A DNA stretch of 64,000 nucleotides from Syntrophobacterales bacterium (GCA_023512475.1 JAILZL010000003.1:54845-118844); one strand, 5' to 3'; positions 36,026 to 39,414 are shown, counted from the first letter of the stretch. Made by a program: numbers and translations. The notes: generated by a model from the sequence alone, not told the origin.

Positions 36026-36715
36026 TCAGGGGGTCACCTGGGCCAGGATGTCGTTCAGTTTGCCCTTGATGTGGCCCAGCGGCGGCAGCACCGGCAGGGC
36101 CGGCACCTCTTCCTCGGTCAACCTGCGGCGTTTGAAGCGCATGCGGGTGGAGAGTTCCTCCCGCTCCGGGGCGAACAGGCCGCCGGAGATCACTTCGCCG
36201 CCCCCCTCCATGGCCTCGATCTGGGCGGCAATGAGGCCGAAGTCGAAGGAGGCGTTGAATTTCTGAATGTCCTCGTTGAGCAGGGTGAGGTGCATCTGGA
36301 GCTTGTGGTGACGCTCCTTCAGGGCGGCCAGGGCCTGCTGCAGCTCCTCATAGATCCCCAACACCAGGTTGCGGAACCGGCGCCAGGCGGTGAGGCCTCG
36401 GGCGGGGCGGTGGGCCAGCAGGGCCTGGCGCTGGGCCGGGGTAAGCTGCCGGAATTCCTCGTAGAAAGGCCAGGGACTCAGCCCCAGGGCCGCCATGACC
36501 CGGGAGATCACCCGCTCCTCCTTCAAGGCGGCGTAGAGGGCGTGGAAAAGCCGGGCCGCCTTGGCCACCTCCTCCCGGTAGGCCTTGGCCTCCTCCTCCA
36601 GGGCCCGGGTCTCCTCCTCCAGATAGACCCGCTCAGCGAAGTAATGATCCACAATCTCCTTTTTGATCTGAAACTTGAGCGAATCCAGTGCCTTTTCCAG
36701 ATCGTCTTCGGTCAT
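36026..36715 (-). CDS. Hypothetical coiled-coil protein
   Basis: E/L/A-rich helical ORF; its start overlaps the upstream stop (ATGA). Confidence 0.75.
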   Translation of the reverse strand: MTEDDLEKALDSLKFQIKKEIVDHYFAERVYLEEETRALEEEAKAYREEVAKAARLFHALYAALKEERVISRVMAALGLSPWPFYEEFRQLTPAQRQALLAHRPARGLTAWRRFRNLVLGIYEELQQALAALKERHHKLQMHLTLLNEDIQKFNASFDFGLIAAQIEAMEGGGEVISGGLFAPEREELSTRMRFKRRRLTEEEVPALPVLPPLGHIKGKLNDILAQVTP

Positions 36716-37566
36716 GGCTCACTCCCGGGGGGGGACTCGTCGGGCTCCGAAGCGCCCGCCGCGGCAGGCAGGGGAGCCAGGGGCAGCTCCTCCAGGGGCA
36801 GCTCCCGTTCCTCGCCGGAGGCGGTCTCCAGGGTGACGGTCTGGCGGATGATGTTATAGCGGATGATCTTGGCGTCGCCGTCCGGGAGGTGCACCCGTTT
36901 CCCCACCCGGGGCAGATGCCGGCGGATCTCCTGATAGGCGGCGTATTCGTAAGTGAGGCAGCACATGAGGCGGCCGCAGACCCCGGAGATCTTGTTGGGG
37001 TTGAGACTGAGCTGCTGCTCCTTGGCCATGCGCACGCTCACCGGCTCAAAGTCCCGGATGAAGCTGGCGCAGCAGAGCTTCTGGCCGCAGACCCCCAGCC
37101 CCCCCACCATCTTGGCCCGGTGGCGCACCCCGATCTGGCGGAGCTCAATGCGGTTGCGGAACTCCTGCACCAGATCCTTGACCAATTCCCGAAAATCCAC
37201 CCGGCCCGGCGCGGTGAAGTAAAAAATGATCTTGCTGCCGTCAAAGAGCACATGGGCCCGCACCAGGTGGATGGGGAGCTGGCGGGCCAGGATGCGGTCC
37301 TGGCAGAAGGCGAAGGCCCGGGCGGCCAGGGCCCGGTTCTTGTCCGCCTGCTCCAGGTCCGCGGGGGTGGCCCGGCGCAGGAGGGTTTTGAGATTCTCCG
37401 GGACCCGCTGGAGCTCCAGATGGCGGTAGATGGTCTCCACCCTGCCCAGTTCCGGGCCGTCCTCCAGGGCCACCACGACCCAATCGCCCCGTTGCAGGTC
37501 TTCTGCGCCGGTGGCCAGAGAGCAGCAGTGGCTGCCGCCGTTCAGTCGCACTTTGATCAGGTCCAT
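36712..37566 (-). CDS. ricT: PSP1-domain protein (RicT/YaaT family, Fe-S binding)
   Basis: GRVDFRELVKDL, RIELRQIGVR, CGQKLCC, KISGVCGRLMCCL; follows holB. Confidence 0.9.
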   Translation of the reverse strand: MDLIKVRLNGGSHCCSLATGAEDLQRGDWVVVALEDGPELGRVETIYRHLELQRVPENLKTLLRRATPADLEQADKNRALAARAFAFCQDRILARQLPIHLVRAHVLFDGSKIIFYFTAPGRVDFRELVKDLVQEFRNRIELRQIGVRHRAKMVGGLGVCGQKLCCASFIRDFEPVSVRMAKEQQLSLNPNKISGVCGRLMCCLTYEYAAYQEIRRHLPRVGKRVHLPDGDAKIIRYNIIRQTVTLETASGEERELPLEELPLAPLPAAAGASEPDESPPGSEP

Positions 37567-38661: not shown

Positions 38662-39414
38662 TTACCCCCTGGGCTTGCGGCCCCGGAGCAGGACCCCCCG
38701 GGTGAGGGGGGAGCTGTTCAGGCCGGTTGGCCCCACCAATTCCGCCTCATGAAAACCCGCTTGTCGCATCAGGGCCAGGAAAACCTTTCCCGGCACAGCC
38801 CCGCCCAGTCAGCGGGCCCAGTTTGCCACCCGCGCCTCCGGGCCGGGGGGCGGCTCTCCGGTGAGCACCTGGTCGGCCACCCAAAACCAGCTTCCCGGTT
38901 TCAGGACCCTGAAGACCTCGGCCAAGGCCGTGACCTTGTCCACCACCAGGTTGAAGGCGCCGTTGGAGATGACCGCGTCAAAGAGGTTCTCCGGGACGGG
39001 CAGCCGGGAGGCGGTGGCCACCAGGAAGAGGAGATTTCCGAGACCCATGAGCCGGGCGTTCTCCCGGGCCCGGGCCAGCATTTCGGGAACCAGGTCGATG
39101 CCGATGACCCTCCCTTGGGGGCCTGTCAGGGTGGCTGCCAGGATGGCGTCCACCCCGGCGCCGCAGCCCAGATCAAGAACTGTATCCCCGCTTGAGATAC
39201 GCCCCAGGGAGAAGGGATTGCCCACCCCGCAGAAGGACCCGGCCACCTGCTCTGGGAGTTCCCGGAGAAAAGGGGCGGGGTAATGCAGGGCCTCCAATCC
39301 GGCCCGGCCGGTGGGGTACCTGAAGCATCCCGCCGGGCTGACCGCCACCTGGGCGTATTTCTGCCGGATGGCGGCGGCGATGCGCTCCTCGTCCTCCCGA
39401 CTCAGCTTCTCCAT
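38662..39414 (-). CDS. ArsM-like SAM-dependent methyltransferase, probable selenoprotein (UGA at 38811-38809 read as Sec; 250 aa)
   Basis: SFCGVGNP, LDLGCGAGVD, LKPG motifs. After the TGA the frame continues LGGAVPGKVFLALMRQAGF...RGRKPRG to TAA at 38664-38662. Confidence 0.8.
38774..38794 (-). promoter_or_regulatory. Bacterial SECIS-like hairpin
   Basis: GCCGGGAAA-GGT-TTTCCTGGC, a 9-bp stem beginning 14 nt after the UGA; the apical loop starts with G. Confidence 0.7.

Follow-up and report, generated by a model that had tools for sequence, protein, structure and literature searches.

Does the methyltransferase gene that lies between guaA and holB end where its called open reading frame ends, at a TGA codon, or does that codon specify selenocysteine (Sec) inside a longer protein? 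In the window (the whole 64,000-nucleotide stretch of DNA that was analysed) the called frame runs on the minus strand from 39414 to 38809 and encodes 201 amino acids, the last of them VANWAR, before the TGA; past the TGA the same minus-strand frame continues for 48 sense codons (LGGAVPGKVFLALMRQAGFHEAELVG...RGRKPRG) until a TAA, which is separated by 54 bp from the start (38607) of the gene for DNA polymerase III delta' (holB; PF13177). Both the position of the called end and the open extension towards holB had been described in the original prediction, and translation bears them out. With the TGA translated as U, the product is 250 amino acids long with U at position 202, and the read-through translation of the window copy contains no further stops or frameshifts. 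Judging from sequence comparison, we consider it about 90% probable that the locus is a single gene whose product is a stand-alone SAM-dependent methyltransferase of 250 residues with the ArsM/AS3MT fold, and that its UGA codon 202 is read as selenocysteine. The proposal of a 250-residue selenoprotein with the sequence WAR-U-LGGA is thus supported, by a conserved UGA, by constraint on the frame downstream of it, by covariation in a SECIS hairpin and by the presence of Sec machinery in the genome. Coordinates of the features that enter into the argument are as follows.

Features of the predicted selenoprotein gene (window coordinates; residue numbers refer to the read-through protein)
Feature	Position	Strand	Remarks
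Predicted selenoprotein coding sequence, 250 aa	38662..39414	-	ATG 39414-39412; Sec-UGA at codon 202; TAA 38664-38662
Cys62 codon, invariant C-G-V-G-N motif	39229..39231	-	two residues before the CmArsM Cys72 position (Val64)
SAM-binding motif I, LDLGCGAG, residues 80-87	39154..39177	-	class I methyltransferase domain Pfam matches
Gly152 codon, invariant S-N-G motif	38959..38961	-	CmArsM Cys174 position; arsenic ligand absent
In-frame UGA, probable Sec codon (U202)	38809..38811	-	aligns with Cys224 of CmArsM; column invariant
48 codons past the UGA, residues 203-250	38665..38808	-	helix 209-219, strands 222-229 and 238-246
bSECIS-type hairpin	38774..38794	-	9-bp stem 38794-38786/38782-38774; GGU loop 38785-38783

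If the TGA were a true stop, the gene would encode a 201-residue methyltransferase, and the downstream frame would be untranslated or would form a separate small open reading frame (GTG at 38796, 44 aa). Public gene calls do end the protein at 201 amino acids here and at about 202 in most relatives, and the genome does use TGA as a normal stop, as is seen in guaA, the immediately upstream neighbour, which terminates in TGA. Genome-wide recoding of TGA is excluded because guaA stops at this codon, and it was rejected as an explanation. Against termination at codon 202 stands, among other things, a complete Sec machinery. The window's genome (G000) is 99.99% complete, and a check for selA, selB, selC and selD, which had been suggested with the prediction, found all four: tRNA-Sec scores 73.8 bits against a cut-off of 47 and has the anticodon TCA by ARAGORN, and SelA (620 bits), SelB (361.5 bits) and SelD (364.5 bits) each score, as the tRNA does, above the family cut-off. 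The selD gene (G000:C32:44857-45774, L016) itself encodes Sec, with an in-frame TGA in the motif G-U-A-A-K and a hairpin about 20 nt after that UGA, and three FDH-alpha-like genes of the same genome (C12, C55 and C21; L050-L052) have one in-frame TGA apiece. The host organism is rich in selenoproteins; the gene studied here would add one more to the set of an already Sec-rich anaerobe, and it leaves the known picture of Sec decoding unchanged.

Are the 48 residues encoded beyond the UGA those of a functional protein? In a 23-sequence alignment, residues 203-250 contain 11 invariant and six nearly invariant columns, and mean identity to the window protein is 54.6% downstream of the UGA vs 52.6% upstream of it. 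Over the 45 codons after the UGA, dN/dS lies between 0.19 and 0.66 in all 22 comparisons, values that point to purifying selection on a downstream frame that stays in register in the 22 relatives. An absence of conservation here in homologues had been named as an observation that would speak against a selenoprotein; in the alignment conservation runs on past the UGA, and by these measures the last 48 residues are conserved as well as the remainder of the protein. An AlphaFold2 model made from this alignment (mean pLDDT 94.8, pTM 0.92) places one helix and two strands after the UGA, with pLDDT 93–98 in this part; going by the model, a protein that ended at residue 201 would miss one helix and two strands of the methyltransferase core, which likewise argues against a true stop.

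The UGA column was followed through relatives at two distances. Of the 63 matches listed for 41 related genomes, 26 extend at least to residue 247 and contain exactly one in-frame TGA; one of these 26 also has a TAA. Thirty loci were translated through TGA and 26 of them aligned; left out were L042, which has an internal TAA and was read separately, and L045, L047 and L049, which, as fusions or distant matches, do not extend to residue 228. The TGA-bearing matches G020:C157 and G012:C13 lacked a locus and are also outside the alignment. Aligning homologues had been suggested as a check on the UGA, and in the 26-locus alignment the Sec column of the W-x-x-U-x-G-G-A motif is U in all 23 close homologues (37–66% identity) and Cys in three distant paralogues; the solved ArsM structures also have Cys in the column of Sec202, and L042, outside the alignment, likewise has U. 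Retention of the UGA in orthologues and Cys in other homologues, one criterion for a bacterial selenoprotein, is therefore what is found here, and the Cys codons that replace the TGA in the distant paralogues and solved ArsMs are a further point against a true stop. A phylum-wide sample of 401 genomes gave matches at E ≤ 1e-45 in 32, and 29 of the 33 matches contain the TGA (the four without it are two partial matches and two paralogues at 40–41% identity); the relatives are kin, and all these counts of conserved TGAs overstate independence.

The same comparisons bear on the idea that the gene is decaying after a recent nonsense mutation of a Cys codon (TGC or TGT to TGA). Only one base change is needed for such a mutation, and decay does occur in the family: in a congener (G003; L042, 1465-2400) the invariant Trp located three codons upstream of the Sec-UGA is replaced by a TAA, and a pseudogene or a sequencing error is the probable reason. 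However, a recent mutation would hardly produce the same TGA in 29 of 33 matches of the phylum sample and in every aligned close homologue down to 37% identity, the window copy is free of other stops and frameshifts, and downstream dN/dS is below 1 throughout, so that we regard a pseudogene as extremely improbable.

The selenocysteine reading also predicts a SECIS element close to the UGA. Counting from the U of the UGA, nt 18–26 pair with nt 30–38 around a GGU loop that starts 23 nt after the UGA, and this hairpin, folded alone, has a free energy of −11.8 kcal/mol. The published bSECIS model has a loop of 3–9 nt, an (upper) stem of 4–16 bp and a G in the first two loop positions (PMC13188914), and further a UGA-loop spacing of 16–37 nt and an MFE at or below −7.5 kcal/mol (PMC13188914); the 3-nt loop, 9-bp stem, 23-nt spacing and free energy found here all fall within these limits. 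Nevertheless, the hairpin by itself is statistically ordinary in this GC-rich DNA. When the 75 nt past the UGA are folded whole, z is +0.74 and 156 of 200 shuffles are at least as stable, and 35 of the 1723 TGA triplets on both strands of the window precede a stem of at least 9 bp in a loose bSECIS geometry (a G-initiated loop at 16–37 nt). Given this chance rate, we did not count the presence of the hairpin as evidence, only its conservation and covariation.

By that standard the hairpin does stand out. Of the 23 sequences, 22 have it in register (in L043 it is shifted), and standard pairs occupy 90.9% of the stem cells, vs 28–65% when the partner strand is slid by 1–3 columns. Four of the nine stem pairs show compensatory changes, that is, changes on both sides; the loop-closing pair, for example, is A-U in 14 sequences, G-C in four and C-G in one. 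The covariation score was reached by none of 500 shuffles, although the sequences are kin and such figures are not probabilities. The original prediction of a 9-bp stem with a G-initiated loop 23 nt after the UGA therefore holds up in both the fold and the alignment, and its description as SECIS-like is upheld by the published model and the covariation. What does go beyond chance is that relatives conserve the UGA, the hairpin and the downstream frame. The covariation of the hairpin is a further point against a true stop; that reading, which we consider very improbable, and the pseudogene were both rejected.

The above comparisons favour a selenoprotein, but what kind of methyltransferase is it? 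By Pfam the protein has a SAM-dependent methyltransferase domain of class I (PF13847 at 100.7 bits; also PF13649 and PF08241), residues D81, G83, C84, G85 and G87 of motif I are invariant in the 23-sequence alignment, and all of the 12 best PDB matches by Foldseek are ArsM or AS3MT proteins, with TM scores of 0.62–0.72 relative to the query. A class I SAM-binding domain with the ArsM fold, which is one criterion for an ArsM, is thus present by both PF13847 and Foldseek. CmArsM, CrArsM and human AS3MT (4fr0, 6cx6, 5evj, 8xt7) share with the window protein the fold and the SAM-binding motifs, and the Cys of their C-L-G-G-A sequence corresponds to Sec202; they differ from it in having Cys rather than Sec there, in having Cys at positions 72 and 174, and in being 300–387 residues long with an extra C-terminal domain.

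The closest described families are selenoproteins of fused type. The three top NCBIfam matches are NF041537 (arsenite methyltransferase/AhpD domain selenoprotein; 351.6 bits, cut-off 510, profile positions 4-249), NF041536 (arsenite methyltransferase/DUF2284 domain selenoprotein; 339.6 bits, cut-off 575, positions 4-250) and NF047649 (methyltransferase/UXPK-star double selenoprotein; 311.3 bits, cut-off 460, positions 4-250), each matched over no more than its first ~250 profile positions, and the nearest homologues of the window protein are relatives of these three fused types (47–66% identity). The window protein has their N-terminal methyltransferase domain nearly end to end, including the Sec of U-x-G-G-A, but it has no AhpD domain, DUF2284 domain, U-x-P-K tail or second Sec, and it scores under all three cut-offs because it ends at the TAA straight after the methyltransferase domain. 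The same stand-alone end is found in G001, G004 and G040, and the Sec-containing ArsM-like domain accordingly exists alone, without AhpD, DUF2284 or U-x-P-K partners. The arsenite methyltransferase model NF008823 gives 175.2 bits, below its cut-off of 263, and the score is under the curated cut-off for every NCBIfam ArsM model.

Table 1 of a 2026 review (PMC13188914) has an entry for arsenite methyltransferase, NF008823 (PRK11873), with the motif UxxG and one Sec, marked 'Experimentally verified', and for this entry the review cites Fomenko et al. 2007 (PMC13188914); it attributes the fused families NF041537, NF041536 and NF047649 to Haft & Tolstoy 2025 (PMC13188914). Compared with that entry as the table describes it, the window protein is alike in being stand-alone with a single Sec in U-x-x-G (here U-L-G-G, at the Cys224 position), and different in scoring under the NF008823 cut-off and in having no Cys at the 72 and 174 positions. 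The kind of selenoprotein is already catalogued, and this gene is a stand-alone, single-Sec member of it; mild novelty attaches only to the absent cysteines and to the near-obligate Sec of the clade, and even these may have been published before.

Among the relatives, L029, L031-L033, L035, L036, L039 and L040 have a second Sec 2–4 residues from the C-terminus, mostly as U-x-P-K-stop, with a hairpin that extends over the stop codon and reaches the 3' untranslated region, an arrangement that matches NF047649. Other relatives extend into longer C-terminal domains.

Whether the substrate is arsenite depends on the cysteines. CmArsM numbering was transferred through 5eg5 and 4fr0 (query residues 202, 152 and 64 correspond to 224, 174 and 72), and this map agrees with the PDB titles 'C224A' and 'C72A'. 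Only one of the four ArsM cysteines is kept, that at position 224, and there as Sec202; the N-terminal Cys30 is out of register, and the clade does not conserve it. The screen described in a published ArsM survey required at least three of the four Cys at CmArsM positions 44, 72, 174 and 224 (PMC5552862), and the window protein falls short of this as it does of the NF008823 cut-off. The 'ArsM-like' of the original prediction is right, with the fold and the Sec at the Cys224 site; the positions of Cys72 and Cys174, however, have no Cys, which weakens the case for arsenite methylation. Pfam scans of 15 neighbouring open reading frames found no arsenic-resistance (ars) genes (the neighbours include a sigma-70 factor, BrkB, PSP1, holB, guaA and PEPCK), and the order guaA-gene-holB, beyond the window, occurs among the 30 loci searched only in G001, of the same genus. 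Because the arsenic cysteines are missing and there are no ars neighbours, we keep to the label 'ArsM-like' and consider arsenite one of the candidate substrates, for which the sequence evidence suggests a chance of about even.

The protein could instead be a real selenoprotein that is not an arsenite methyltransferase, belonging to a separate family with a Cys62/Sec202 site and acting on another substrate, perhaps a different metalloid, a compound of selenium or sulfur, or a small organic molecule. The single ArsM cysteine in register (as Sec, where the survey's screen called for at least three; PMC5552862), the low NF008823 score and a neighbourhood of housekeeping genes (guaA and holB) that lacks ars genes all favour this possibility. 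On the other hand, ArsM and AS3MT are the closest solved folds and sequences, the conserved Sec lies exactly at an arsenic-binding cysteine, NCBIfam curators use the name 'arsenite methyltransferase' for two of the three fused relatives, and no result here points to an alternative substrate. We give a substrate other than arsenite somewhat less than an even chance.

The wider family contributes to the same question. When 150 representatives were grouped by their residues at the Cys62, Val64 and Gly152 positions, all 52 tabulated members of the canonical class (any residue at 62, with Cys at the other two positions) have Cys at the 224 position. Of the Cys62/Val/Gly class, to which the window protein belongs by these residues, 13 break off no more than 6 residues short of the U column, one reads W and one has Cys, and of the Ala62/Val/Gly class 21 have Cys and eight end within those 6 residues; ending there was used, from protein sequences, as a proxy for truncation at a UGA. 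This distribution suggests that Cys62 and Sec202 may act as a coupled pair, with Cys62 the candidate partner of Sec202, and it too favours a substrate other than arsenite. A stronger version of that idea, which we put forward tentatively and think rather unlikely, is that the clade marked by C-G-V-G-N, S-N-G and W-x-x-U-x-G-G-A is a distinct, essentially Sec-obligate methyltransferase family that does not methylate arsenite, in which a Cys62/Sec202 dyad would replace the multi-Cys arsenic site and serve another substrate or a selenenylsulfide mechanism; if this were true, the stand-alone form found here would be the minimal catalytic unit of the family. The loss of two arsenic ligands with strict retention of Sec is a hint that the chemistry of the clade differs from that of the textbook ArsM, and such a difference would matter for the use of arsM-like genes as markers of microbial arsenic methylation.

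For the predicted selenoprotein itself the following mechanism can be proposed. By standard bacterial Sec insertion, SelB carrying Sec-tRNA(Sec) would bind the hairpin inside the coding sequence and deliver Sec to the ribosome at codon 202, in competition with release factor 2. In the finished protein Sec202 would sit at the site of the substrate-binding Cys224 of CmArsM and, to judge from ArsM structures, could bind a soft metalloid or similar substrate beside the methyl group of SAM, probably together with the invariant Cys62. Sec202 may cycle through a selenenylsulfide; in relatives the fused AhpD domain, DUF2284 domain or U-x-P-K tail may re-reduce it, and for the window protein a separate reductant would presumably do so.

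How is the gene represented in public data? Its database product is a 201-residue protein (P0002), and of the 120 nearest proteins listed, all but one cover no more than 80% of the query, and most are 202 amino acids long. The one full-length database match (P0003) has W at the Sec column, its TGA having been translated under another code. The source names of the nearest proteins are 'arsenite methyltransferase', 'SAM-dependent methyltransferase' and 'methyltransferase domain-containing protein'. Standard annotation had been expected to truncate this gene, and it does so for the gene and its relatives alike, at about 201–202 residues; with 119 of the 120 nearest listed relatives covering no more than 80% of the query, the methyltransferase is systematically mis-annotated, and what is lost is the probable catalytic Sec and the last 48 residues.

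Several minor observations were made along the way. The paralogues L046 (G038) and L048 (G037) are ArsMs of canonical type, with G-C-G-N-P, S-N-C-V-I-N-L and G-C-L-G-G-A all having Cys, and in both an N-terminal motif that reads C-C-P in L044 is C-U-P, the U being an in-frame TGA; some 21 nt past that codon there is a small hairpin whose loop is GGG. The Sec site in C-U-P is distinct from the one described above, a second for ArsM, and the ArsM entry in Table 1 of the review does not include it (PMC13188914).

Within the genus, the query with the window protein gave no match in G002 (95% complete). In G001 the locus with the guaA-methyltransferase-holB order (L026) has the last 28 guaA codons duplicated downstream of the methyltransferase gene; the duplicate has 100% amino-acid identity to residues 489-516 of the window's GuaA, and the window has only the 54 bp at that place. 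The duplicate looks like a remnant of insertion of the methyltransferase gene at the 3' end of guaA. Downstream of holB in the window lie a PSP1-domain gene and an open reading frame with a weak HepT-like match (27.3 bits), at 36026-36715 and 36712-37566 on the minus strand, which are unrelated to the selenoprotein gene.
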